A DNA stretch of 37,007 nucleotides from a bacterium (GCA_021783915.1 JAJXTI010000003.1:9712-46718), one strand, 5' to 3'. Positions 10,175 through 36,522 are shown, counted from the stretch's first letter. The notes: generated from the sequence alone by a model not told the origin. Numbers and translations: made by a program.

Positions 10175-11674
10175 ATGCTTGCCCATTGGTTATTCCCATT
10201 TACAACTGATTCCGTTATTTATGTCAGCACCGCCGAGAATATCAGCCATTTCAAAGGGCTAGTCTTTAGCAATTTTTTCGTGCAACCAGCAATTCCAGAT
10301 AGCCTGCCAACTATTTTTGAACCACCCGGCTATCCCATTCTTATTGCGGCACTTAAATTTTTTGGAATCAATGCGTACACAGCCAGTCTTGTTTGGCCAC
10401 GAATAGGGTTCTTATTTTTACCATTCCTGTTTTTTATAGTCTTTAGGAAATTGATGCCCTCTATTGTGGCTTGGGTGGCTTCATTTGTGTGCACATTTAT
10501 GTTTCCTGTTGTCAAGTGTTCACTTATGGCCTGGACAGATGTACCGTATTTATGTTTTAGCTTAATAAGCTTGGCCATGGTATTTCATATCATCGAAAAG
10601 AGGACCAAGGTCCCAATTTTTTTTATTTTTTTGACGGGGATTATTACCGGGTATGCATTTCTTATTAGGTATGTTGGTCTGCCCCTGAATTTAAGCATCG
10701 GTATAGGTTTGATAGGGGCTTTTGTCATCGGGCTGATAAATTTTAAAGATTTCCTAACAACAACAGCTGTGTATGTCCTGGGGGTTTTCTTGGTCGTTGC
10801 TCCCTATGTCATTCGCAATTTAATTGTTTTCGGAAGAATACAGCCTCTTTCGATGCGGCCTTCCAAGATTTCTTTGCAGGTCAGTCTACATGATTACTTC
10901 CGAAGCTTGGCGGAGATGGTTTTTACAAACCGTATTTTTGAAGGCGTAGTTTTTATCCTTATGGCGGGGCTGATAGCAGGTTTTGTTCTTTTTGCCTGGA
11001 ATACAGTCAAACACGAGAAAACCGTCTTTATTTATGCGCTCATCCTTTTGGTCTATTTTGTCCTTGATTCTGTCTTTCTCATTGGCTTTAAAACAATCTA
11101 TTTGACTCCGGAATCTATCGATGAGCGTTTTCTTATCCAGCTGGCTTGGATTTTTATGGGAGGCCTGGTATATGCTGTTCATGCCGTACTTAAAAGATTA
11201 AATGCGTTTGTTGCTTTAGATATTAAATCCATTACAGCCCTTATCCTTTTTGCGTTTGTTCTGGTACAGGTTTTCCCGGCGGTCGATTTTTATTACACTC
11301 AAAAGACAATCAAGAAAGTATCAGAGAAAATAGAGCAGTATGCTCCTCTTGTGCAAAGATTACCTAAGGATTGTGTGATCGTTTCAAATGTAGCTGAAAT
11401 AACCTACTATTTTGCGAAACGCAATGTGCGTATGTTGGGCAATTATACCCCTTATGGTTTGCTTAAGGTTTTTGGGACCAAAAGGAGATTTGTTGTCTTT
11501 ATTATTAAAGAAGACGAATTCTTAAGCCCAGCTTGGGAATATCCAAGAATGTGGCAGAACCCGCAAGGGTATTACAAGTTTTTTTCTGATAAAAATGTAG
11601 ATTTGTTTATACCTCTCCCTTTAGGGTATATTTTAAGAGGGGCAGGTCATGTGCCTGTGATCATCGAGCCGTGA
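10175..11674 (+). CDS. Polytopic membrane protein, GT-C/ArnT-PMT-like glycosyltransferase
   Basis: About 10-12 hydrophobic segments. 'TDSVIY', 'PPGYP', 'WTDVPY', 'LIRY' and 'PYVIRNLIVFG' motifs are typical of GT39/GT83-like proteins. Confidence 0.65.
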   Translation: MLAHWLFPFTTDSVIYVSTAENISHFKGLVFSNFFVQPAIPDSLPTIFEPPGYPILIAALKFFGINAYTASLVWPRIGFLFLPFLFFIVFRKLMPSIVAWVASFVCTFMFPVVKCSLMAWTDVPYLCFSLISLAMVFHIIEKRTKVPIFFIFLTGIITGYAFLIRYVGLPLNLSIGIGLIGAFVIGLINFKDFLTTTAVYVLGVFLVVAPYVIRNLIVFGRIQPLSMRPSKISLQVSLHDYFRSLAEMVFTNRIFEGVVFILMAGLIAGFVLFAWNTVKHEKTVFIYALILLVYFVLDSVFLIGFKTIYLTPESIDERFLIQLAWIFMGGLVYAVHAVLKRLNAFVALDIKSITALILFAFVLVQVFPAVDFYYTQKTIKKVSEKIEQYAPLVQRLPKDCVIVSNVAEITYYFAKRNVRMLGNYTPYGLLKVFGTKRRFVVFIIKEDEFLSPAWEYPRMWQNPQGYYKFFSDKNVDLFIPLPLGYILRGAGHVPVIIEP

Positions 11675-11736
11675 ACCTGCCGATTTTAAGCGAACTGCAG
11701 CAGAAATTACAAGCTCCCGTGCCTGCCATGACCTAA
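11651..11736 (+). pseudogene. Probable frameshifted relic of the C-terminal tail of a GGIDL-family modular protein
   Basis: VPVIIE (11651-11668) is followed in a shifted frame by VNLPILSELQQKLQAPVPAMT* (11671-11736). The family assignment is from memory. Confidence 0.45.
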
Positions 11737-17838: not shown

Positions 17839-19125
17839 ATGCGATTCTATGCAGACCTTCACATCCATTCTAAATACTCCCGTGCAACGGCTAAAAATCT
17901 TGATTTAGAAAACCTTTATCTTTGGGCTCAATATAAAGGAATACAGGTTGTTGGTACCGGTGATTTTGTTCATCCCGTTTGGATGAAAGAACTCGAGGAG
18001 AAATTAGAGCCTGCCGAAGAAGGTCTATTTAAACTCAAAGATAAATATGCCAAGCCTATTGACGCTCAAGTGCCGAAGGCCTGTTACGGTAGCGTACGTT
18101 TTATGCTCACGGTCGAGATTTCCAATATTTATAAACGCCTGGACAAAGTCCGTAAGGTCCATAATTTGATTTGGTCCCCGTCGTTTGCAGCGGCCAAGAA
18201 GGTGCAGGCCAAACTGGGTGGCATCGGCAATATTAAAAGCGATGGGCGACCGATTTTGGGATTGGATTCTAGGGATCTTTTGGAAATCACCCTTGAGGCC
18301 GATAAAAAAAATATTTTTGTGCCTGCCCACATATGGACGCCATGGTTCTCGGCTTTGGGATCTATGGGAGGGTTTGACCGCATGGAAGATTGTTTTGCAG
18401 ATTTAACGGACCATATTTTTGCCGTCGAAACTGGCCTATCATCGGATCCTTTAATGAACTGGCGTTTAAAGCAATTGGATCCTTTTATTCTGGTTTCGAA
18501 TTCCGATGCACATTCGCCTTCAAAATTAGGCCGCGAAGCCAATATTTTTGATACCGATCTTTCCTATCCGGCTATTTATAGGGCATTATCTGATAGCAGA
18601 GATAACGGCTTGTTGGGCACCGTGGAATTCTTCCCAGAAGAAGGTAAATATCATTATGACGGCCATAGGCTTTGTCATGTACGCTGGCATCCCCAACAGA
18701 CCATAGAAAATAATGGTTTGTGTTCGGTGTGCGGTAAGCCTGTGACCGTAGGGGTCATGGCCCGTGTAGCAGAATTGGCTGACCGGAAAGAAGGGGAAAA
18801 AAGTAAACGGCATCGTCCTTATTGGAACACAGTGCCATTGCCTGAGGTGATTGGTGAAGCCAAGGGCGTAGGCCCTGCCAGCAAAGCCGTTCAGGAAGCT
18901 TACATGAACATGCTGGCCAAAATAGGCAGTGAATTTTATATCCTTCTGGATGCCCCCATAGATAAAATTCGCCGAAACGCCGGAGAGATGATTGCCGAAG
19001 GAATAAGCCGTATGCGCAAGGGCAAGGTCAAAATTGCCGCCGGTTATGATGGGGAATACGGCACCGTTGAGATTTTTAAAGAGGGTGAACGGGACAAAAT
19101 CGAGAAGCAGTTAGCCTTATTTTAG
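17839..19125 (+). CDS. Endonuclease Q family (PHP-domain) nuclease
   Basis: 'DLHIHSKYS', 'PAHIWTPWFS', 'ETGLSSD', 'NSDAHS', 'GKYHYDGH', Zn-binding 'CSVCG', 'GYDGEYG'. Confidence 0.9.
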   Translation: MRFYADLHIHSKYSRATAKNLDLENLYLWAQYKGIQVVGTGDFVHPVWMKELEEKLEPAEEGLFKLKDKYAKPIDAQVPKACYGSVRFMLTVEISNIYKRLDKVRKVHNLIWSPSFAAAKKVQAKLGGIGNIKSDGRPILGLDSRDLLEITLEADKKNIFVPAHIWTPWFSALGSMGGFDRMEDCFADLTDHIFAVETGLSSDPLMNWRLKQLDPFILVSNSDAHSPSKLGREANIFDTDLSYPAIYRALSDSRDNGLLGTVEFFPEEGKYHYDGHRLCHVRWHPQQTIENNGLCSVCGKPVTVGVMARVAELADRKEGEKSKRHRPYWNTVPLPEVIGEAKGVGPASKAVQEAYMNMLAKIGSEFYILLDAPIDKIRRNAGEMIAEGISRMRKGKVKIAAGYDGEYGTVEIFKEGERDKIEKQLALF

Positions 19126-25347: not shown

Positions 25348-25794
25348 ATGTCATTGATTCAATATCGTAAACACCAAATAGACCCATTACGGGAAATCTT
25401 GAATGATGAATTCTTTAGTCCATTTTTCCCTTTAGTGGGGAGATCGCTGGTAAGAAATGCTTCACAATGGTTCCCGGCTTTGGATGTCTTAGAAGAGAAA
25501 GAAAGCTATACCATTAAGGCTGATTTGCCAGGTATTAAAAAAGAGGATGTACGTGTTTCCTTTGAAAATGGCCTTTTGACCATTGAAGGTGAACGTAAAG
25601 AGGAAACGGAACAGAAGGATAAAAATTATCACCGCCTGGAGCGGACCTATGGCCATTTCGTACGTTCTTTTAATTTAGGTACAGGCGTAGATGCTAGTAA
25701 AATTCAGGCCAACTATAAAGATGGGGTCTTAGAGATAGTCGTAGCTAAATCCGAAAAGGCCAAACCCAAAGCCATTGATATTCAGGTTGGATAA
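25348..25794 (+). CDS. Hsp20/alpha-crystallin small heat-shock protein (cytoplasmic)
   Basis: 'ADLPGIKKED', 'LTIEGER', 'ERTYGHFVRSF', 'ANYKDGVLEI', C-terminal IxI 'IDI'; SD AGGAGGT. Confidence 0.96.
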   Translation: MSLIQYRKHQIDPLREILNDEFFSPFFPLVGRSLVRNASQWFPALDVLEEKESYTIKADLPGIKKEDVRVSFENGLLTIEGERKEETEQKDKNYHRLERTYGHFVRSFNLGTGVDASKIQANYKDGVLEIVVAKSEKAKPKAIDIQVG

Positions 25795-25806
25795 TGGGTA
25801 TTGTGT

Positions 25807-25835
25807 AGTAGGGGCGATTTATCATCGCCCCTACT
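25807..25835. repeat. GTAG-type REP-like palindrome
   Basis: AGTAGGGGCGAT (25807-25818) pairs with ATCGCCCCTACT (25824-25835), a 12-bp perfect stem between hsp20 and clpB. Confidence 0.7.
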
Positions 25836-25852
25836 GAAAGGAAATGGTATAA

Positions 25853-27976
25853 ATGCAATCGCAAGAGCAGAACATACAAAAACCTTTAGAAAAATTCGGT
25901 AAAGATTTAACAGATTTGGCCAGTAAAGGTAAGCTTGACCCCGTTATCGGGCGCGACGAAGAAATTCGCCGTGTTATTCAAGTGCTATCGCGCCGGACCA
26001 AGAATAATCCTGTTTTAATCGGCGAGCCGGGGGTTGGCAAAACGGCGATAGTCGAAGGTCTGGCGCAGCGGATTTTTTTAGGAGACGTTCCTGAAGGCCT
26101 TAAACACAAAAGGGTCGTTGTTTTGGACATGGGAGCTTTGGTGGCCGGAGCAAAATTCAGGGGAGAATTTGAGGATCGGCTTAAAAGTGTTTTAAAAGAG
26201 GTGGAGTCTAATGATGGAGCCATTATTTTATTCATTGATGAGCTACACACTATTGTCGGCGCAGGGCGGGCAGAGGGAAGTGTAGACGCCGCTAATTTAC
26301 TTAAACCCGCCCTAAGCCGTGGGATGTTGCGTTGCATTGGCGCAACCACATTGGATGAATACCGTCTGTATATTGAAAAAGATGCGGCCTTAGAAAGACG
26401 GTTTCAGCAGGTCATGGTCAATGAACCGACGGTGGAAGACACCATTGCCATTTTACGTGGCCTTAAGGAAAAATATGAGGTGCATCACGGCGTACGTATT
26501 CAAGACTCCGCAATTATTGCCGCGGCGGTAATGAGCCAGAGGTATATTACAGATCGTTTCTTACCGGACAAGGCCATTGACTTAATTGATGAGGCGGCTT
26601 CCCGATTGCGTATTGAAATCGATAGCATGCCTCAAGAGTTGGATCACAATGAACGAGAAATCCGCCGGCTTGAAATAGAACGACAGGCCCTTAAGAAGGA
26701 ACAGGATGTCTCCTCTAAAGAGCGTGTCAAGACAATCGAAGAAGAATTAGCAATTTTAAAGGAAGAAAATAAAAAGATGCGCATACGCTGGCAAAATGAA
26801 AAGGTGGTTATTGACCGGATCCGTACCATTAAAGCGGATATTGAAGAACGTAAAATTGAAGAGGCCAAGGCTGAGAAAGTGGGGGATTTGGATAAAGTCG
26901 CTCAAATCCGCTACGGTGTTCTGGTCCAGTTACAAAGGGAATTGGAAGTTAATAATAAAGAACTCTCCAAAGTACAAAAAAATGGAGCCATGCTTAAAGA
27001 GGAGATTGATGACCAGGACATTGCGGAAATTATTTCTAAGTGGACAAAAATTCCCTTGTCAAAATTGATGCAAGCAGAGACAGAAAAATTAGTATATATG
27101 GAAGAAGCCTTAAAGAAAAAGGTCGTTGGTCAGGACAAAGCCATTGAAGCGATTGCTTCTTGCATTCGCCGCTCTCGCACAGGTTTAAGCGACCCGCAGA
27201 GGCCCTTGGGTTCATTTATTTTTGTGGGGCCCACAGGGGTCGGTAAAACCGAGTTGGCCAAGGCCTTGGCTTGGTTTTTATTTGATGATGAAAGTGCCAT
27301 AGTACGTATTGATATGAGCGAATATATGGAAAAACACAGCACCTCGCGTCTTATTGGTGCCCCACCGGGTTATGTCGGTTATGATGAAGGAGGCCAGTTG
27401 ACCGAGGTGGTACGCCGTAAACCTTATGCGGTGGTACTTTTTGATGAAATAGAAAAAGCCCATCCGGATGTTTTTAACGTACTTTTACAACTGCTTGACG
27501 ACGGACACCTGACCGATTCCCAAGGCAGGGTCATTAATTTTAAGAATACAATTGTGATTATGACTTCCAATATTGGGACGGAACAGATAACGGATTTGAC
27601 GGATCAGCAGAAAATAGAAGACCATGTACAAAGGGCTTTGCGGGTGCATTTCCGCCCAGAATTCTTAAACCGTGTGGATGAGATAATCGTCTTTTCACGT
27701 TTGACAGAAGCCCAGATAAAGAAAATCGTTGATATTCAGTTAGGCATCTTGGCAAGCCGTTTAAATCAGAAAGAAATAACATTGGAGGTTTCCGAGCAGG
27801 CCAAACAATTCTTGGCCAGGCAGGGTTACGATCCTGTTTATGGGGCCAGGCCTTTAAAAAGGACGATTCAAACTTTGGTTCAAGACCCTATTGCCTTTCG
27901 CCTTTTGCAAGGAGAGATCAAAGAAGGCCAGAAGATTAAGGTGGATGCTCAAGGTGAGGGTCTAGTTATTGTATAA
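25853..27976 (+). CDS. clpB: ClpB disaggregase lacking the N-terminal Clp-repeat domain
   Basis: '[13 protein letters not shown]', 'GEPGVGKT', 'FIDELH', long coiled-coil M domain, 'GPTGVGKT', 'GAPPGYVGY', 'FDEIEKAH'. Confidence 0.95.
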
Positions 27977-27999
27977 GTGATAAAATCAGGAGGTGTCTT

Positions 28000-28629
28000 A
28001 TGCAAACGACAAAACTCAATCGAATCACTACTGTTTTTTTATTGACAGCCGGGATGGTTGTATTGATTCATGCCACTGCCAGGGCCAATGAAACACAGGA
28101 CTTGAAGAATCAGGTTCAGGCCCTACAGCAGAAGGTGGATCAATTGGAAAAACAACTGGCCAACCGGTCTTCGTCACAAGTTAATGCACAGCTTCCCAAT
28201 GCAGGATCTTTTTATGATCAGTGGGATCCCTTTGCCCAGATGCAAATGATGGAACACCAAATGGGGCATATGATGAAGGAGAACGCGGTGGATTTTAACC
28301 CGCGTGAGGACATCAAACAGATGCCCCATGCTTATATTGTCAGCATGGACATCCCCGGGATGCAAAAAGACAAAATTAACCTGGAAGTCAAAAATGGGGT
28401 ACTTGTTGTCTCTGGCCAGCGTGAGAGCGAAGTCAAAGAGCAAAGGCCAAATCAATACTATCGTCAGGAACGTTATTTTGGTAATTTTTTAAGGACCGTA
28501 CCGCTTCCTGATGATGCTAAGACGGATAATATCAATGCCCAGTATAAGGACGGTGTTTTAACTATTACGGTTCCGCGAACTAAAGTAGGAAACAAAGGTT
28601 CAGAAGGGCAAAAAATAACAATTCGTTAA
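28000..28629 (+). CDS. Hsp20/alpha-crystallin-domain protein with predicted Sec signal peptide and coiled coil
   Basis: Basic n-region, hydrophobic h-region and A-R-A cleavage motif; heptads 'LKNQVQALQQKVDQLEKQL'; alpha-crystallin domain 'MDIPG', 'ERYFGNF.R', 'AQYKDGVLTI', 'ITI'; SD AGGAGGT. Confidence 0.88.
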   Translation: MQTTKLNRITTVFLLTAGMVVLIHATARANETQDLKNQVQALQQKVDQLEKQLANRSSSQVNAQLPNAGSFYDQWDPFAQMQMMEHQMGHMMKENAVDFNPREDIKQMPHAYIVSMDIPGMQKDKINLEVKNGVLVVSGQRESEVKEQRPNQYYRQERYFGNFLRTVPLPDDAKTDNINAQYKDGVLTITVPRTKVGNKGSEGQKITIR

Positions 28630-28675
28630 AAGTAGAAATATTTTTATTTTGACGAAAGGTATTGTTCCAAGCTAG

Positions 28676-29035
28676 ATTGGTGACTGTGTATCGGTATTCA
28701 CTGCCGGTATACCGATACTTTTATGTTCCTGTGGGGCCATTTCTATGGCTATATCTTTGATCCAAAATGGATCCAGTCAGGGATCCACTTTAGCTTTGCT
28801 TGATCCTATTATGGCGGGCTCCCATCCATTAGCGGCCTTTATGATGGTTATTCTTGTTGGTATCTTTATTGATCATGTTTATGAAGACCTGGAATTGATG
28901 TACCCTTTGGTCAGATGAGCCGTTGTCATCAATAAGAGTCACATCACAAACCGTAAGCCTGATGATTTGCCGTTGTTTTTCTGGAACATTGAATATTTGA
29001 CTTCTGAAACAAAAGAAGGATTGACAAAAAAATAG
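28676..29035 (+). pseudogene. Deletion-collapsed relic of an ArsP/SO_0444-type permease fused to fragments of a PfpI/DJ-1 gene
   Basis: One frame reads AGIPILLCSCGAISMAISLIQNGSSQGSTLALLDPIMAGSHPLAAFMMVILVGI-FIDHVYEDLELMYPLVR*AVVINKSHITNRKPDDLPLF. Confidence 0.7.
28688..28724 (+). terminator. Terminator-like hairpin downstream of the hsp20-clpB-hsp20 operon
   Basis: GTATCGGTAT (28688-28697) pairs with ATACCGATAC (28709-28718), followed by TTTTAT. Confidence 0.5.
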
Positions 29036-29048
29036 GACATGTTATACT
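29021..29048 (+). promoter_or_regulatory. Sigma70-type promoter of the hrcA operon
   Basis: TTGACA (29021-29026), 16-bp spacer, TATACT (29043-29048) with an upstream TG. Confidence 0.78.
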
Positions 29049-29075
29049 TTAGCAGTCGTATATTTAGAGTGCTAA
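29049..29075. promoter_or_regulatory. CIRCE element 3 (HrcA operator)
   Basis: TTAGCAGTC-N9-GAGTGCTAA directly after the -10 box, upstream of hrcA. Confidence 0.92.
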
Positions 29076-29123
29076 TCCCGGGGGCAGTACTTTTATGGAG
29101 GGTTTCACAGGGAGAAAAACAAT

Positions 29124-29849
29124 ATGGTTAAACAAACTGATTTACAACAACGTAAAGATTTAATTTTAGCCATAGTGGTCAATCAATACATCAAGACCAT
29201 TACTCCGATAGGTTCGCATTTTATCACTGAGGAATTTAGGCTGGATGTGTCACCGGCCACTGTGCGCAATATTTTAGCGGAACTAGAAGAGGAAGGTTAT
29301 TTGAGTCATCCGCATACCTCTGCTGGGCGCGTCCCTACCCAGCGTGGGTATCGCTATTATGTCGATCATCTGATGAATGAAATCCAGCTTTTAGAAGAAG
29401 AGAAGCGCCGCATTCAATTGGAATATAAAAGGCACGTGGATCAGTTAGAGATTTTGATGGAGAAAACCACTGAGGTGATCTCTGATTTGACTCATTATAC
29501 GAGTATTATTTCAGTGGATGGCTGGGACAGTAAAATTATTCTCAAAGGGACCAGCCATGTGGTCGGCTATCCTGAAAATACGAATATATTAAAAATACAG
29601 GCAATCTTAAGAATTCTCGAGGAGAAGGAGCGTTTGTTGGCCTTAATCAACCGTGACTTGAATCATAAAATCGAAATTTATATCGGTCATGAAATGGCAT
29701 TGAAAGAAATAGAAGGTTGCTCCTTGGCCGTGTCTAGTTTTGAAAAGGGTAGCTTAACCGGACGCATTGCGGTTTTGGGGCCAACACGCATGAATTACAA
29801 CCGTGTGGTCTCTGCCCTTGAGTATATCTCGGATTTATTTAGCCATTGA
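29124..29849 (+). CDS. hrcA: Heat-inducible transcription repressor HrcA (short form)
   Basis: 'SPATVRN....LEEEGYL.HPHTSAGRVPT..GYRYYVD', C-terminal 'VLGPTRMNY'. Confidence 0.95.
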   Translation: MVKQTDLQQRKDLILAIVVNQYIKTITPIGSHFITEEFRLDVSPATVRNILAELEEEGYLSHPHTSAGRVPTQRGYRYYVDHLMNEIQLLEEEKRRIQLEYKRHVDQLEILMEKTTEVISDLTHYTSIISVDGWDSKIILKGTSHVVGYPENTNILKIQAILRILEEKERLLALINRDLNHKIEIYIGHEMALKEIEGCSLAVSSFEKGSLTGRIAVLGPTRMNYNRVVSALEYISDLFSH

Positions 29850-29872
29850 TGGAAAGGTTATAGATCAAGGTT

Positions 29873-30433
29873 ATGGACGAAAACGTTCAACAGCCTACAG
29901 AAGAAGTTTTGTCGCCTCAAGAAAACCAGCCTCAATTTTCACCGAGAATCGAGCAGGAGGTGCCACAGAAAGTTGATGTTTTTGACGGATTAAAAGGGCA
30001 GTTGGCGGCTGAAAAAGAAAAATATGTACGGCTTTTGGCCGAGTTTGACAATATGCGAAAGCGTCACCAGCGCGAGCGCGAAGATTTAATCAAGTATGCG
30101 CATGAAGAAGTCATCATTGAGTGCCTGAAACTTTATGATAACTTGGAACGTTCTTTGAATGCATTTAAAACCAAAGAAGGGGTAGATACAAATTTGGTCA
30201 AAGGCCTTGAGATGGTTTTTAACAACATGAAAGAGCTCATGAACAGGTACGACGTCAAATCCATTGAATCTGTCGGTAAACCGTTTGATCCCAATGCCCA
30301 AGAGGTCTTGATGCAGCAGGAAACAAAGGATTTTCTTGATGGGGTTGTGATGGAAGAATTTGAAAAAGGTTATACCTTAGGAGGACGGGTAGTACGTACG
30401 GCTAAGGTAAAGGTGGCAAAGAATAATACGTAA
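29873..30433 (+). CDS. grpE: Nucleotide exchange factor GrpE
   Basis: '[12 protein letters not shown]', 'DNLER', 'FDPN', 'KGY.L..RVVR.AKVKV'. Confidence 0.96.
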
Positions 30434-30467
30434 GGGCGTTGGTCCGCCCTTAAAGGAGGATACTATT

Positions 30468-32405
30468 ATGGCACGTGTTATAGGTATTGATTTAGGAACA
30501 TCGAATTCTGCGGCAGCAGCCATGGAAGGCGGCAGACCGGTGATTATCCCTTCAGCCGAAGGGGCTGGGGTTGCTTCAGGAAAAGCGTTCCCTTCATTTG
30601 TGGCTTTTACCAAGGATGGGCAATTACTCGTTGGAGAACCAGCTCGACGACAGGCGCCCATCAATTCCGAGGGCACCATCTATGCCTCCAAACGTAAAAT
30701 GGGCCTGGATTTTAAATTTAAAGTTTTTAGCAAAGAATACACGCCGCAACAAGTAGGTTCTTTTATTTTACAGAAAATCAAAAGCGACGCTGAGAAATTT
30801 TTAGGCGAGACAATAGAAGGTGCGGTCATTACCGTGCCGGCGTATTTTAATGACAATCAGCGCCAGGCAACCAAGGATGCGGGAGAAATCGCGGGTTTAA
30901 AAGTTTTGCGCATCATCAACGAACCTACGGCAGCGTGTTTGGCGTATGGTCTGGATAAAGCCGGTAAGGAACAAAAGATTATGGTGTTTGATCTCGGCGG
31001 AGGAACGCTGGACGTGACTATTTTGGAAATGGGCTGGGATGAAGCCCATAAGGCCGCTACATTTGAAGTGTTGGCTACATCAGGAGACAATCAATTAGGC
31101 GGTACCGATATGGACAATGCCTTGATTGATTATATCGTTGCTGAATTCAAAAAAGAAAGCGGCATTGATTTACGCAATGATAAAATGTCGTTCCAGCGTC
31201 TGCGTGAAGCAGCGGAGAAGGCCAAGGTGGAGCTGTCCAGCACTGTCTCCACAGAAGTTAATCTTCCTTATATCACCGCCGATGCCACGGGGCCTAAGCA
31301 TTTGAACATCAAAATTGACCGTGCTAAGCTCGAAAATTTAATTGCACCGTTGGTAGACCGTTGCCGTGGCCCGGTGCGTCAGGCTATTAAAGATGCGTCC
31401 TCTAAGCTGGGGGAGGAAGTCAAGATTGACCGTGTTGTTTTAGTCGGAGGCCCTACCCGTATGCCTGTTGTTCAGGCTTTTTTAGAAAAGGAAGTTGGTC
31501 AGAAAATCGAAGGCGGTATTGACCCCATGGAATGTGTGGCTTTAGGTGCCGCGATTCAGGCGGCCATTATTACTGGGGACGCCAAAGAAGTCCGTTTACT
31601 CGACGTTACACCTTTGTCGCTTGGCATCGAGACCATGGGAGGTGTGTTTACTAAATTGATTGATCGTAACACTACCATTCCGACAAAGAAAAGTCAGGTT
31701 TTTTCAACGGCGGAAGATAACCAACCCGCTGTGACGATCCGTGTTTTACAAGGCGAGCGCCAGATGGCTAATGATAATACGGAACTAGGCCGTTTTGACT
31801 TAGTAGGTATCCCACCGGCACCCCGTGGAGTTCCACAGGTGGAGGTGACTTTTGATATCGACACTAACGGTATCGTACATGTGGGGGCCAAAGATAAAGC
31901 GACCGGCAAAGAACAAAAAATTCAAATAACGGCCAAGACCAAATTATCTGATGACGAAATTCAGAAAATGGTCAAGGAAGCAGAGAAGTTTGCCGAAGAA
32001 GATAAAAAACGCCGTGACGAAGCTGAGCTTTTTAATCAAGGCAATGCCTTAGTGTATTCGACGGAAAAAGCGCTAAAAGATTATGGCGATAAAGCCCCCG
32101 CGTCTGATAAAGAAAACGTGGAGAAAGAATTGACGGCACTCAAGGATGCCATCAAGGATAAGAATCACGACAAAATTAAATCTTCGATGGAGTCATTGCA
32201 GAAAGTAAGCCATAAATTGGCCGAAGAAATGTATAAGGCCACATCTGCCCAAGGTCAAGCTGGTGCCGGCACTACAGGCGATGCAGGTGGACCGCAACAA
32301 CCTAATGATGCCGATGGCCAACAGCAACCATCGTCAGGGGATACGGGTACTAAGGGCAAGGATGATGTGATTGATGCGGATTTTAAGGCGACAGATAAAA
32401 AATGA
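30468..32405 (+). CDS. dnaK: Molecular chaperone DnaK
   Basis: '[10 protein letters not shown]', 'TVPAYFND', 'NEPTAA', 'DLGGGT', '[11 protein letters not shown]', 'STAEDNQP'. Confidence 0.98.
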
Positions 32406-33535
32406 AGAAAGATTATTACGAAATTCTTGGTGTCACAAAAACGGCAAGCCTTGCGGATATAAAGAAGGCTTACCGTTCTTTGGCGCTTAAACATCATCCT
32501 GACCGCGTGGCCGTAGGTGAAAAAAAAGGAGCTGAGGAAAAGTTTAAAGAAATTTCCGAAGCCTATGGGGTTTTGTCTGACCCACAAAAACGACAAACGT
32601 ATGATCAATTTGGTCATCAGGGCATTGACCAGAATTATACGTCTGAAGATATTTTCCGCGGAGCTGATTTTTCCAGTATTTTCGAAGGGGCTGGGTTAGG
32701 AGACATTTTAGGCCGCATGTTCGGGGCAGAATTTGATGTTTTTGGCGGCGGTGGTGGCGGCCGTTCCAGCAGGCATTCACGAGGCAGAGACATTCAATAT
32801 GAAATTGAACTGCCCCTGGAAGAAGCTTTTTCAGGCGTTAAAAAAGACATTCGTGTGCCTCGTCACGAGTTTTGTAAACAGTGCAACGGCACAGGAGCTA
32901 AAAACGGGACGGCCTTAAAGACATGTCCCCAATGCCGTGGCCAGGGGCAAGTGGTGATGTCTTCCGGCTTCTTTCGCATGGCTCAAACCTGTGGGCATTG
33001 TCGCGGGACAGGAAAGGTCATTACGGAACAATGCCCTGAATGTTCCGGCCAGGGACTAAAGCGTGTGGTAAGGAACATTGAGGTCAATATTCCAGCCGGT
33101 GTAGATAATGATTCTCAGCTACGCGTGCGCGGTGAAGGTGAAATAGGCCAAGGCGGCAGCGGTGATCTTTATCTTTTTATCAGAGTCCGTGAACATGATG
33201 TTTACAAACGAGATGGCCAGGATTTGTACATGGATGTTCCTATGAGTTTTACCAAGACTGCTTTGGGAGGAGATATCCAAGTCAAGACCCTTAAGGAAAC
33301 GGTGGAGATGAAGATCCCTGCCGGTACCCAAGGTGGAAAAATGTTTAGGCTCAAGGGGCAAGGGATGCCTGGAGTACATGGCCAGACACCAGGAGACCTT
33401 TATGCACGAGCTATGATTGAAGTCCCCACCAGTTTGAATAGCCGCCAGCGAGAACTTCTGGAAGAATTTGCTAAAGAATCAGGGGAAACCACCAAGGGGT
33501 CATTTAAGGACCGGATTAAAAAAGCATTTAAGTAG
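32402..33535 (+). CDS. dnaJ: Molecular chaperone DnaJ
   Basis: J domain with HPD, G/F-rich region and four CxxCxGxG repeats. Confidence 0.98.
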
Positions 33536-33560
33536 GGGACCTGTACGGGAGGATTATTAT

Positions 33561-33830
33561 ATGCCAACTTACCAATATGAATGTGAAGCTTGTGGCCATG
33601 AGTTCGAGGCCTTGCAGTCCATGATCGAAGCTAAATTTAGAAAATGTCCTAAATGCAGTAAAAATAAATTAGCGCGTCTTATCGGAAGCGGTTCAGGCAT
33701 GATATTTAAAGGCCCAGGCTTTTATGCCACTGACTATAAGAAAAAAACGTCTTCTGATTCTAAAATCGAAGCCAAGCCTGTTCCAACCCCTGGCCCTTGC
33801 GGCAGCAGTTGTTCCTGCCATCCTCATTAA
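33561..33830 (+). CDS. FmdB-family zinc-ribbon protein
   Basis: SD GGGAGG then ATG 33561; 'MPTYQYECEACGHEFE', 'CPKC', 'FKG.GFYATDY'. Confidence 0.92.
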   Translation: MPTYQYECEACGHEFEALQSMIEAKFRKCPKCSKNKLARLIGSGSGMIFKGPGFYATDYKKKTSSDSKIEAKPVPTPGPCGSSCSCHPH

Positions 33831-33993: not shown

Positions 33994-36522
33994 ATGACAT
34001 TGCGGCAAATTTTTGTTATTGCGGCATTGGTTTCTTTTTCCCTGGGTAACCTGGACCCCGTACCTATGTCTTATGCTCAGGAAGCTGCTGATTTGCCTAT
34101 ACCCGGGGCCATGATTAACTTAAGCCCTGCTTTTGAACCCGTACTTATCAAAGGTTTGAAGATCCATCCTGAAAACCCTTTTGCTTTTGATTTTATTATT
34201 GATACAGGTAATACTAATTTAACTGCAAGCAATAGCAAAAAACATTTCCTTCAGGAAGAATCTATCAAGTTAATCAAATATTTCCTGGCTGCGATGACCA
34301 TACCTGAAAAAGATTTATGGGTAAATTTATCTCCTTATGAAAAAAAACATATGATAGCTTCTAATTTAGCGGAAACCAGGATGGGACGGGACATGCTGGC
34401 CCAGGACTATATTCTTAAACAATTGACGGCTTCATTGATTTACCCCGAAAAAAAACTTGGGAAAATCTTTTGGAATAAGATTTATACCAAAGCTCAGCAG
34501 TTATACGGAACGACCCAGATACCAGTCAATACATTTAACAAAGTATGGATAGTAGCGGATAGAGCAGACGTGTTTGAACAGGGTAATGTTGCTTATGTGG
34601 TAGGTGCGCATTTGAAGGTAATGTTGGAAGCAGATTACTTAGCGATGCATAAGGCAAATGTTTCCCAAGGCATCTTACGAAATCAAACGCAAAAGCAATC
34701 GGATGGAACAGAATTACCACGGGAGACTGATGTGCAGCAGATAGGTTCTCAAATGGTACGGGATCTCATCCTTCCTGAACTTGAGAAAGAAGTTAATACC
34801 GATAAAAATTTTGCCACCTTACGCCAGATGTTTTATTCCATGATCCTTGCCAGTTGGTACAAAATGGTGCTCAAAGATTCAATATTGACTCAGATTTATG
34901 CGAATCAATCAAAAGTTAAGATAGGTATTGGCCAGGACGATCCTCAAGCTAATGAAGAAATATTCGACCGATACCTAAAAGCATACAGAAAAGGGGTGTT
35001 TAATTACATCAAAGAAGATATTAATAAAGCGACAGGGCAGAATACTCCTAGAAAGTATTTTTCAGGTGGATTAGAAATTTTTCCTGGAGGAGATGCGGCA
35101 CAGGTCATCTATCGACACCAACCTTGGCGGACAGGGACGATAGTAGGAAGGGCTTTTGATGTAACGGTATTAGTGAAGGCTAAAACAGAAGCGGGTATGC
35201 AGGAAGACCACGCCATGATGAATGAGGGTGATTCAAGAGGGGATGGCGCAGGGGCTTTGTTAAGAGGTGAACGCAAAGAGGTCTACCTGGCCATTAATGA
35301 ATTGACCCAAGGAAATGCTCTTGTTGAAGTGACACGACCAGAGGTCAACGATATAGCCAGGAAATTAAAATTACCACCCAGTCGAATTATAGAGATTATG
35401 GAAAACACTTTAGGGTTATGGGGTACGGAGGCAGAGACCTGGGTGGGTTTTGATTCCAAGTTGACAGGCGGTATTCAATTCATACAAGATCTGCGCTGGG
35501 CAGAATTTCCAGGGCAGAAAGGTACACACATTGTTCCAGACCAAATTAAAGTAAGAACAGGAAATTTAGAATTTCAATTGGCATTACGCTGGCAAGGTGG
35601 ACAATTTAATCCTAGCGGTAAAGAAAACGAAGATTTGAGGTATTCCCTTACAAATCAAGATGAAGGTGTTATCTTGGGGCTGACGCGTGTAGAAAAGAAG
35701 GCCCAACAACGATGGGCATTTGATCTTACCCCTGAACAGCGTGGAGAAATGATAGATTATTTGAGAAGAAACCAACAATATGGGCGACAAGACAAGTCGA
35801 TGAACGCTCAATCATTAAGGCAGGAGGCTGCCCAAATTATCCAAATGGCTAAAACTAATTTTTTAAGCAAACCGGACGTTTTAGTCATAGGATCTGATAT
35901 TTTTTCATCAACGGCGCATATGATCGAAACGATTTATCAAAGAAAAGTTGTGCGGGTTCCTACTAATCAGGCCGCGTTAGCATTATTAAATGGTAGAGGA
36001 AAGGCCGCGGGGAAAATTGGTTTGGTTTTATCTGTCAATGCCTTTGACGAACAGGCTTTCGTTCAAAACATATATCAAAACCGTCTTTTAATACCTATTA
36101 TTATCGCACCTTCTTGGGAGGGGGATCAAGGGCCTGTTGGTGAGCTCCCTCCCAACGTATTGTTTACTCCATCAAGAGTGCTATGGAATAAAGTTGTTTC
36201 TAATATTTTAGATGGCACGATTATAGATAACAGACCTGAATTCAGATCTGCAGTAGCTGCTGTTACAACACAATTAAAACAGTTACCTTCTGTGGAGGGT
36301 TCTTCGATGGCAATGCCGGGAGGTATCGATCTTGACCGTAATAAAATGCAATTGAACACGCGCAAAGAAGAAGGTATTACAATGCACTTCGATGCCGCCA
36401 TGGTTGGGCGTATCAGGCGTGAGGGTTTTGATGGCTTGGAATTTCAAATACAATCTATTGTGCCTGTTACAGATTTGTCGCTGTTGCTCGGCACAACCCC
36501 TAAACAACACTTCAGGCATTGA
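33994..36522 (+). CDS. Large secreted modular protein of unknown function (conserved-looking N domain, internal segments, GGIDL C-terminal motif)
   Basis: 842-aa ORF with an N-terminal signal-like segment; 'HPENPFAFDFIIDTG', 'DLWVNLSPYE', 'GRDMLAQDYILKQLTASLIYPE', 'PRKYFSGG'; C-terminal 'AMPGGIDL'. Confidence 0.8.
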   Translation: MTLRQIFVIAALVSFSLGNLDPVPMSYAQEAADLPIPGAMINLSPAFEPVLIKGLKIHPENPFAFDFIIDTGNTNLTASNSKKHFLQEESIKLIKYFLAAMTIPEKDLWVNLSPYEKKHMIASNLAETRMGRDMLAQDYILKQLTASLIYPEKKLGKIFWNKIYTKAQQLYGTTQIPVNTFNKVWIVADRADVFEQGNVAYVVGAHLKVMLEADYLAMHKANVSQGILRNQTQKQSDGTELPRETDVQQIGSQMVRDLILPELEKEVNTDKNFATLRQMFYSMILASWYKMVLKDSILTQIYANQSKVKIGIGQDDPQANEEIFDRYLKAYRKGVFNYIKEDINKATGQNTPRKYFSGGLEIFPGGDAAQVIYRHQPWRTGTIVGRAFDVTVLVKAKTEAGMQEDHAMMNEGDSRGDGAGALLRGERKEVYLAINELTQGNALVEVTRPEVNDIARKLKLPPSRIIEIMENTLGLWGTEAETWVGFDSKLTGGIQFIQDLRWAEFPGQKGTHIVPDQIKVRTGNLEFQLALRWQGGQFNPSGKENEDLRYSLTNQDEGVILGLTRVEKKAQQRWAFDLTPEQRGEMIDYLRRNQQYGRQDKSMNAQSLRQEAAQIIQMAKTNFLSKPDVLVIGSDIFSSTAHMIETIYQRKVVRVPTNQAALALLNGRGKAAGKIGLVLSVNAFDEQAFVQNIYQNRLLIPIIIAPSWEGDQGPVGELPPNVLFTPSRVLWNKVVSNILDGTIIDNRPEFRSAVAAVTTQLKQLPSVEGSSMAMPGGIDLDRNKMQLNTRKEEGITMHFDAAMVGRIRREGFDGLEFQIQSIVPVTDLSLLLGTTPKQHFRH

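Follow-up and report, generated by a model that had tools for sequence, protein, structure and literature searches.

A candidate exported protein family of Omnitrophota with constant ends and variable, motif-delimited cargo

MARTX toxins of Vibrio and its relatives are type I secretion substrates that have no Sec signal, carry glycine-rich RTX-type repeats, and contain a cysteine protease domain of their own that cuts after Leu in the linkers between effector domains. CdiA and the polymorphic toxins have delimiters such as VENN and PxxxxDPxGL, with a variable toxin tip at the C-terminus that is accompanied by an immunity gene; TpsA/CdiA proteins possess a beta-helical TPS N domain and need TpsB. 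Cargo of the type IX secretion system (T9SS) bears a conserved C-terminal sorting domain of ~70 amino acids (aa), and LapA has an N-terminal retention module, a di-alanine site for LapG, and no Sec signal. Here, we compare with these systems an 842-aa protein that is encoded at positions 33994-36522 of a 37,007-nucleotide stretch of bacterial DNA (GCA_021783915.1 JAJXTI010000003.1:9712-46718; the whole stretch is called the window below). The gene is a member of a very large family that is found only in a subset of the Omnitrophota. Judged from sequence, the architecture of the family is fixed: a predicted signal peptide, an N domain, one to many cargo modules, and a C-terminal tail, with the modules separated by a short D-x-A-M linker motif that is selected as peptide. 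The ends form a frame that diverges as a unit, and the cargo inside it is replaced wholesale.

Long proteins of the Omnitrophota have been the subject of two preprints (West-Roberts et al. 2023, 10.1101/2023.11.21.568195; 2026, 10.64898/2026.06.07.730766), whose available text describes signal peptides joined to cytoplasm-type tiles such as receiver, NUDIX, and HAD domains, kinases, sugar-metabolism enzymes, and TPR/HEAT repeats. The occurrence of cytoplasm-type domains behind a signal peptide puzzled the describers of these proteins, as far as that text goes; cleavage into multiple products was proposed at sites that were not known, and one of the preprints states, in its available part, that missing cleavage-point information blocked the parsing of the long proteins. 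The giants treated there (Archaeovorin, Dockerin type, and multi-enzyme) are at least 10,000 aa long and have many transmembrane (TM) helices and C39, S8, SecA-like, or dockerin domains. Neither the N domain nor the tail nor the motif described below is mentioned in the available text of the two preprints, supplements aside, and literature searches on the motif words (GGIDL, YFSGG, DxAM) or on the family returned unrelated papers only; the family is apparently undescribed.

A constant frame

A first-pass annotation of the window, made from its sequence alone, had singled out this open reading frame (ORF) as a secreted, cassette-like protein with motif-bounded internal segments, and had pointed to an Omnitrophota family with the same constant ends and highly variable cargo. 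The ORF and all of the motif coordinates given there map exactly onto the 842-aa translation, and this family does exist, in the genome from which the window comes (the own genome), among public proteins, and in related genomes. Two outcomes had been named beforehand as speaking against the annotation, collinearity of homologs over their full length and a motif that is not enriched at domain borders; both were looked for and neither was found. The observation is confirmed, and the earlier interpretation, a polymorphic polyprotein or effector-delivery system with the motifs as processing sites or recombination joints, is partly supported.

How large is the family? In the own genome (1.74 Mb in 142 contigs, 88.8% complete), the N-terminal 370 aa match 12 ORFs (E 3e-249 to 3e-40) with open frames of 186 to 3,077 aa, six of them cut by contig ends, and the C-terminal 77 aa match seven ORFs by phmmer, with further tails marked by the word GGID. 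Among public proteins, 3,277 of 8,000 scored candidates match at E<=0.001; the best 120 of the 3,277 align over 33-58% of the query, which is the N domain, and the named ones among these 120 are called 'hypothetical protein, Candidatus Omnitrophica/Omnitrophota' or are named after a cargo domain. A profile made from an alignment of 36 N domains (A1), which scores the window ORF at 561.7 bits (E 5.7e-164), retrieves 8,335 representative 50%-identity clusters at E<=0.001, with 6,700 at E<=1e-30, and the N-domain match starts at residue 1-54 in all of the best 150 of the 8,335 clusters. Lengths in the family are mostly 500-5,000 aa. The N domain is matched in 18 of 21 related genomes, with maxima of 81, 65, and 35 matches per genome, which are not exact copy numbers; the genome with 81 matches is 2.6 Mb in size. 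In a sample of the phylum, the N domain occurs in 26 of 201 Omnitrophota genomes, all 26 of them in the window's class, where they belong to its own order and to four other taxonomic families, and in one large taxonomic family it is found in 0 of 63 genomes.

In a tree of the 36 N domains, the eight copies of the own genome are scattered among the copies of other genomes, so the paralog lineages appear to be old; the N domains of paralogs are 45-63% identical in protein. The active turnover that the annotation had proposed is not in view: the gene is identical, with no variant, in contigs of four DNA runs of one study, and therefore no exchange can be seen in progress. Two other contigs of the own genome are of note. 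A paralog at C27:10108-14039 is split into an N-domain ORF and a cargo-plus-tail ORF in different frames, at a run of seven G (~C27:12089-12095) that could be an assembly error, a pseudogene lesion, or a slippage-prone tract. At C20:13847-29686, a 5,280-aa open frame that is cut by the contig end holds three D-x-A-M words and weakly matches aa 337-415 of the window protein (E 7e-4); this frame may be part of the giant gene of the own genome.

The N-terminus of the window protein agrees with the signal-like start that the annotation had seen: a short basic start and a hydrophobic run are followed by an A-x-A-type site (SYA|Q, with Ala28 kept in at least 90% of the 36 aligned N domains) and by a nearly invariant LPxPG. 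By crude rules, a hydrophobic 10-mer is present in 203 of 209 complete relatives, and a small-x-small site precedes LPxPG in 199. The N domain ends in PRKYFSGG as had been noted (YFSGG is aa 355-359) and has the signature LPxPG ... WVNLSPYE ... GRDMLAQDYxLKQ ... NKVWI ... LKVMLE ... EVNxGKNF..LRQ ... PRKYFSGG, with 47 columns invariant across the 36 sequences; ten far more distant members retain WVNL (from W109), T128, D138, K142, E212, N268, R277, and K290. In an AlphaFold2 (AF2) model of the domain (predicted local distance difference test, pLDDT, 71.8; predicted template modelling score, pTM, 0.63), three hairpins are combined with long helices, a hairpin at 336-357 closes the domain, and residues 355-407 are unstructured.

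The N domain is without a detectable known fold. It has no Pfam or NCBIfam match and no match to PDB sequences at E<=1, and the best structural hits are E 0.16 by Foldseek and Z 4.2 by VIA-align against 48,161 chains. An Atlas structure search returned unnamed Omnitrophota clusters along with the Planctomycetota DUF1598 (PF07643; TM-score 0.52 over 254 residues), a structural lead that is unconfirmed, with no genome match at E<=10 to the 84-position Pfam profile of DUF1598. The ORF as a whole contains no Pfam family at cut-off and gives zero NCBIfam matches, the sole Pfam signal being a sub-threshold IF2_N (E 0.16, aa 451-474). The extension that follows YFSGG is common only to P0004, P0015, P0020, and P0083, where the matches end at or near the first D-x-A-M.

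At the other end of the protein, GGIDL (aa 776-780; 36319-36333) is followed by 62 aa, close to the ~60 estimated in the annotation. The tail of the window protein follows the pattern GGIDL-x(20)-F-DAAM-helix ... GFDGLEFQIQSIVPV ... LLG, and the consensus of 101 tails is pGGIDLN..nMqmnV.KDG.GVeM.FDPAMIeRIkreGFDGLefvI.sItPv. The tail profile matches the window protein at E 1.9e-29 (aa 762-841) and finds 843 proteins, with a median of 5 aa between the end of the tail and the C-terminus. Among the 60 that are 700 aa or longer, 48 also carry the N domain; most of the remaining 12 are on contigs of <5 kb and four start without Met, so they may be truncated at the 5' end. In a comparison with PDB sequences, the best E for the tail is 0.37, which is no match. 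A second strict motif, DAAM, lies inside the tail and had been overlooked in the annotation; it stands at the start of a modelled helix (model residues 396-405, which are aa 801-810).

Two small ORFs of the own genome, outside the window, consist of a tail only (C9:4903-5154, minus strand, and C117:12153-12515). The C9 ORF is found directly downstream of a family gene and probably starts at the Met that ends a DLAM word. Both ORFs are the sort of relic that the annotation had sought in the window at 11651-11736; that segment turns out to be the C-terminus of an unrelated 499-aa ORF ('...HVPVIIEP*'), with zero matches at E<=10 to the tail profile or to the N-domain profile.

The comparison of frame and cargo is based on the 207 of 345 family proteins in which both N domain and tail are complete, the other 138 being without an end or truncated. 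N-domain identity and tail identity are correlated in these proteins (Spearman 0.55). The homologs are far from collinear: even among the 171 pairs with N-domain identity of at least 80%, only 5.3% have any cargo match in common, and only 2.9% have a match over half of the shorter cargo. Matches between N domains end a median of 9 aa past YFSGG, and matches between tails begin a median of 6 aa before GGID. Are the two ends, then, the halves of one fold? In such a split display domain, YFSGG and GGIDL would be neighbouring strands, the cargo would sit in a loop, and the frame would be a scaffold that displays or carries it, an arrangement that is compatible with either fate of the linker motif. 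We consider this rather unlikely. The ends do diverge together, but in-step divergence is also expected from plain common descent. Homology does break exactly at YFSGG and just before GGIDL, the N domain does end in the modelled hairpin 336-357, and the tail is always at the extreme C-terminus and nearly always found together with the N domain; however, no cargo-free protein made of N domain plus tail occurs among the short members, and tail-only small ORFs exist.

Table 1. Features of the family gene in the window (window coordinates; + is the strand shown)
Feature	Residues (aa)	Coordinates	Strand	Basis
Whole ORF, one family member	1-842	33994..36522	+	open frame, 842 aa plus stop
Predicted Sec signal peptide, putative cleavage after SYA28	1-28	33994..34077	+	modelled helix aa 2-20; Ala28 >=90% conserved
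Conserved N domain (~330 aa)	29-359	34078..35070	+	alignment A1; 12 own-genome ORFs; 8,335 clusters
Sub-clade-specific extension after YFSGG, up to first D-x-A-M	360-404	35071..35205	+	pLDDT <50
DHAM, strict delimiter	405-408	35206..35217	+	strict D-x-A-M
Cargo module 1	409-599	35218..35790	+	winged helix at ~aa 420-491 (35251-35466), then poorly modelled strand-rich part
DKSM, degenerate delimiter	600-603	35791..35802	+	coil between two helices, pLDDT <50
Cargo module 2	604-770	35803..36303	+	receiver-like (CheY-like) fold ~aa 620-745
SMAM, degenerate delimiter, just before tail	771-774	36304..36315	+	101 aligned tails
Conserved C-terminal tail domain (~65 aa)	776-842	36319..36519	+	tail alignments; pLDDT 73-79
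DAAM in tail	800-803	36391..36402	+	101 tails: D 91, A 84, M 73

The linker motif

The D-x-A-M motif is strongly concentrated in the family, and within it in the cargo. In the own genome, family ORFs (14,876 aa) contain 31 D.AM words and all remaining ORFs with 150 aa or more (536,881 aa) contain 38, or 2.08 versus 0.07 per 1,000 aa (~30x); D.SM is only ~3x enriched in the family. The middles of the 207 full-length relatives hold 418 motifs, compared with 21 after shuffling each middle, and in 228 relatives there are 2.78 motifs per 1,000 aa in the middles versus 0.05 in the N domains, where the motif is at background level (4 in 75,240 aa). The wider consensus reads [P/A/S/G]-D-[A in 34%]-A-M-[T/A/L/V]-[A/S/T/V]. 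Gaps between successive motifs are bimodal, with a median of 174 aa and 75 of 357 gaps at 40 aa or less. As for the three marks that the annotation had called DxAM-like in the window protein, DHAM is a strict D-x-A-M, and DKSM and SMAM are degenerate variants; the segments between the marks, put at about 190 and 167 aa, measure 191 and 167 aa. Across the alignment of 101 tails, two upstream columns at the SMAM position most often have D and A (44/101 each), and many relatives have a strict D-x-A-M no more than ~25 aa before GGID. DKSM and SMAM are predicted to lie in unstructured linkers, in a model of low confidence.

The motif also falls between domains, as the annotation had expected. A Pfam domain had been precomputed for 34 relatives, and a family at E<=1e-5 was obtained for 30 of them; in these 30, none of the 88 internal motifs lies in a Pfam envelope, with envelopes covering 23.4% of the middles (binomial p = 6.6e-11). 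Matches between unrelated members often run from motif to motif, at different positions in each protein, so that the motif brackets shuffled modules; for example, residues 313-406 of P0082 match 766-860 of P0114, and residues 50-367 and 391-664 of P0117 match P0097. For seven of 27 Pfam domains, the start lies 6-12 aa past the motif Met, as in stand-alone proteins, and in P0084 a full-length PGK profile match begins at 765, after M758. Where models are available, the motifs appear in low-confidence coil.

Is the motif selected as DNA or as peptide? The annotation had allowed for recombination joints, in which D-x-A-M would be the translated footprint of a conserved cassette-exchange site. The shuffling of modules between proteins, with matches that start and end at motifs, would be expected on this idea, but at the level of DNA the idea is already contradicted. 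In 34 motif instances, both Asp codons (GAT 22, GAC 12) and all four Ala codons (GCG 15, GCC 13, GCT 4, GCA 2) are in use, and the 18 bases upstream and 12 bases downstream of the motif are without a common sequence. Because the codons vary and the flanks share nothing, selection acts on the peptide and not on the DNA. The N domains, at the divergence given above, are too distant for homologous exchange now, and the gene is the same in all four runs; we regard recombination joints as a highly improbable explanation.

A peptide motif need not be a cutting site, and the main rival to processing is that the proteins stay whole, as periplasmic or surface scaffolds in the manner of beads on a string, with the motif as a structural linker that caps a helix where a module begins, or as a docking motif for another protein or for the N domain. 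The tail motif stands one residue before a modelled helix and DKSM just before another, the tandem motifs 10-40 aa apart (the 75 short gaps of 357) would suit multivalent binding, and no protease was found in the searches for C93 and C39 peptidases described below. Against this, a helix cap rarely needs three fixed residues of four, the motif sits in low-confidence coil between domains and falls to background in the N domain, and those cargo domains whose start lies 6-12 aa past the Met resemble complete proteins. Taken together, uncleaved scaffolds seem a serious possibility that we nonetheless hold to be unlikely.

Cargo, cysteine, and cellular location

The window protein has two cargo modules. 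In the first, a winged helix is predicted with good local scores (AF2 pLDDT 74-94 over model residues 21-70), and the top VIA rows are mostly winged-helix DNA-binding domains, the best being the DpnI winged helix (Z 7.2, 63 aa, 2.2 A). For the second module, an Atlas structure search gave TM-scores of 0.51-0.54, with receiver-type signalling clusters in 10 of 10 rows, nine of which carry PF00072; VIA gave the 4xlt receiver (Z 5.9), and the model shows strand-helix alternation. This receiver-like module has no Pfam match, and by eye its usual phospho-acceptor position seems not to be Asp. The model of the C-terminal half is poor (pLDDT 53). A search of 8,000 word-sharing candidates with lengths of 463-1,474 aa gave no homolog of the window protein's cargo at E<=0.001.

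In relatives, the cargo spans metabolic enzymes (PFK, PGK, transaldolase, adenylate kinase, Glu/Leu dehydrogenase, histidine phosphatase, fructose-bisphosphate aldolase, and PGM), hydrolases and transferases (HAD, HD, NUDIX, and methyltransferases), signalling domains (receiver, GGDEF, HATPase_c, protein kinase, PP2C-like, FHA, sigma-54 AAA+, and HPr), and DNA- or protein-binding domains (HTH, RNA polymerase alpha C-terminal domain, DnaJ, TPR, HEAT, ankyrin, and WD40). All 41 genomes of the taxonomic family encode a stand-alone PGK (~400 aa, ~500-537 bits), two of these genes being split by contig ends, and one of the 41 has a second, divergent PGK (79 bits) inside a 2,193-aa frame. The cargo modules are extra, divergent copies of normally cytoplasmic domain types beside the housekeeping genes. 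Two relatives bear on proteases: a 5'-truncated paralog in the own genome (C2:3-1562) has a HELAH (HExxH) word in its cargo, which may be a zinc peptidase module, and P0232, from the tail search, has a precomputed peptidase M48 domain. Proteases thus appear to occur as family cargo.

A second property sets the family apart from the rest of the genome. Cysteine makes up 0.13% of own-genome family ORFs versus 1.25% of other ORFs of at least 200 aa, and 0.127% of 345 public family proteins (352,454 aa). The own genome's other signal-like proteins (n = 71) have 0.70% and its cytoplasm-like proteins (n = 296) 1.28%, where the signal-peptide class and the 'exported' class follow crude ad hoc rules; the depletion in the family is ~10x and goes beyond that of the other signal-like proteins. 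Cysteine is absent altogether from 117 of the 345 family proteins, compared with 3.3% of other ORFs of at least 400 aa, and from all 842 aa of the window protein. The cargo is included: 4,760 aa of Pfam cargo domains contain 5 Cys, and there is none in the fused domains of PGK, PFK, transaldolase, and adenylate kinase, versus 3 in 377 aa for the stand-alone PGK.

Cysteine avoidance is typical of proteins that cross the envelope unfolded or work outside the cytoplasm, such as autotransporter passengers, RTX proteins, and secreted proteins of Gram-positive bacteria. In combination with the signal peptide, the depletion speaks for exit of the entire chain from the cytoplasm, together with its cargo; export of the family proteins is, on these sequence grounds, supported. 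The opposite has to be considered as well. The hydrophobic segment might be an inner-membrane anchor, with the cargo as metabolic or regulatory modules tethered on the cytoplasmic face: every cargo Pfam family is of cytoplasmic type, further hydrophobic segments are found in 58 of 209 members, and the 2026 preprint (10.64898/2026.06.07.730766), in its available text, interprets many of the long proteins in this phylum as having a membrane anchor and cytoplasmic domains, an interpretation that it discusses there for long proteins with TM segments only. However, positive charges come before the hydrophobic run and acidic residues after it, an A-x-A-type site with the Ala28 described above is conserved, the hydrophobic run of the window protein is too short for a 19-residue TM threshold, and the tenfold purge of Cys extends to the enzyme domains and beyond other signal-like proteins. 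For these proteins, cytoplasmic tethering strikes us as improbable.

Possible processing and delivery, and known systems

What might such a protein do? Our best reading, for which the scales stand about level, is a Sec-exported, polyprotein-like carrier in which the frame serves common export or delivery and the D-x-A-M linkers are processing sites. In this scheme, the whole chain would leave the cytoplasm via Sec, and the constant ends would serve a shared machine for export, anchoring, or delivery. D-x-A-M would be the recognition site of an endopeptidase, most simply one cutting A|M, and such a cut would release modules that start with Met, like stand-alone proteins. The cargo would act outside the producer, most likely in or on another cell, which would fit the host-dependent lifestyle of Omnitrophota described in the available text of the two preprints. 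The complete scenario, Sec-dependent delivery, confined to one part of the Omnitrophota and encoded by dozens of genes per genome, of polyproteins that a dedicated protease cuts at D-x-A|M into Met-starting, cysteine-free enzyme and regulator modules acting inside or on a host or prey cell, is one that we put forward tentatively and would expect to be wrong rather than right in at least one of its parts.

A number of findings weigh against the carrier with processing sites, and those on the motif itself come first. A strict internal motif is present in 162 of the 207 full-length relatives and absent from 45, one 3,077-aa paralog is without any D-x-A-M, some tail sub-types lack the motif, and two of the three internal marks of the window protein are degenerate. 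The tail motif caps a modelled helix, and its position at the helix start allows a structural role as a helix cap. Homology between close relatives mostly breaks at YFSGG and GGIDL and not at the motif, with only 13% of N-domain matches ending within 6 aa of the first motif; the 45% of match ends that fall within 15 aa of a motif, versus 13% at random, are inflated by the motif just before the GGID cut. The ad hoc nature of the signal-peptide and 'exported' classes belongs on the same side.

The partner search weighs in the same direction, and the secretion or protease genes that the annotation had expected to co-occur with the family did not emerge from it. A LapG-like C93 peptidase is above cut-off in 0 of 21 genomes, with one sub-threshold match, in a genome without the family. 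The distribution of the C39 peptidase does not follow that of the family: relatives have it in giant ORFs of 17,411-85,816 aa, and family-free genomes have it as well. TpsB (PF03865) was not found in six family carriers (G000, G004, G005, G006, G007, and G011), genomes with 81 and 35 family matches included, and was found in all three family-free genomes; genome completeness is 74-96%. In the own genome, the family genes have no recurrent dedicated neighbour and are flanked by housekeeping genes, the only neighbour pairs being chance ones (PNPase with ribosomal protein S1; two histidine kinases). Additionally, there are no RNA runs among the listed holders of the gene.

The immediate surroundings of the gene are of the same kind, and no dedicated context was found around it in the window. 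It lies downstream of a compact heat-shock cluster (25348-33830, plus strand: HSP20, ClpB, HSP20, HrcA, GrpE, DnaK, DnaJ, and a zinc-ribbon (Zn_ribbon_8) protein) and upstream of a DUF1015 gene. Two other ORFs of the window, at 10175-11674 (499 aa, the one with the C-terminus '...HVPVIIEP') and 17839-19125 (428 aa), have no Pfam match at E<=1e-5.

The module grammar and the cysteine purge are new, testable facts, and processing and delivery are hypotheses built upon them. The purge of Cys from PGK, PFK, transaldolase, and adenylate kinase domains is a sign, written in the sequence, of work outside the producer's cytoplasm. If cutting at D-x-A|M is real, then the motif would be the first code known to direct the processing of this phylum's multi-domain proteins, and if the modules are delivered to other cells, then the family would be the main effector repertoire of host-dependent Omnitrophota and a natural library of cysteine-free, export-compatible enzyme variants.

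How does the family compare with described systems? With the MARTX toxins it shares the plan of constant ends, used there for export and translocation, around a variable central string of unrelated domains, but its signal peptide is of Sec type, and both its end domains and its linker motif are different. In the window protein, Pfam matches neither RTX repeats nor peptidase C80 and cysteine is lacking altogether, and GG.G.D words number 6 in the 345 family proteins and none in the window protein. Like CdiA, the family has a signal peptide, a conserved N domain of ~300 aa, a short motif at the border of constant and variable parts, and large repertoires, but the C-terminus of the family is constant and its variable part is internal and multi-modular. 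The window protein contains no Pfam TPS domain at E<=1, its model consists of long helices and hairpins and not of a beta-helix, and VENN occurs in only 4 of the 345 proteins. T9SS cargo resembles the family in its signal peptide, variable cargo, and conserved C-terminal domain; neither Pfam nor NCBIfam matches a T9SS C-terminal domain (Por_Secre_tail type) in the window protein. With LapA/LapG, the likeness is a folded N-terminal module followed by a short Ala-rich site, the family motif reading D-A-A-M in 34% of cases.

The giant proteins of the Omnitrophota share with the family the phylum, the signal peptide, and cytoplasm-type domains. They differ in that the window protein is only 842 aa long, has no such Pfam match, and has no TM-like 19-mer, and in that the family possesses an N domain of its own, D-x-A-M delimiters, and the GGIDL tail. 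A giant ORF of 39,654 aa in the congener G005 (C2:190456-309417) was considered as a link and set aside as a weak one: it has a C39 match near its start and no YFSGG or GGIDL word, and its 8 D-x-A-M motifs (0.20 per 1,000 aa), six of them at aa 7233-7678, amount to a slight enrichment only. By analogy, the functional resemblance would be closest to MARTX and to the polymorphic toxins with delimiter motifs, whose defining features failed to appear here, and the closest biological counterparts would be the 'multi-enzyme' long proteins of the Omnitrophota themselves.

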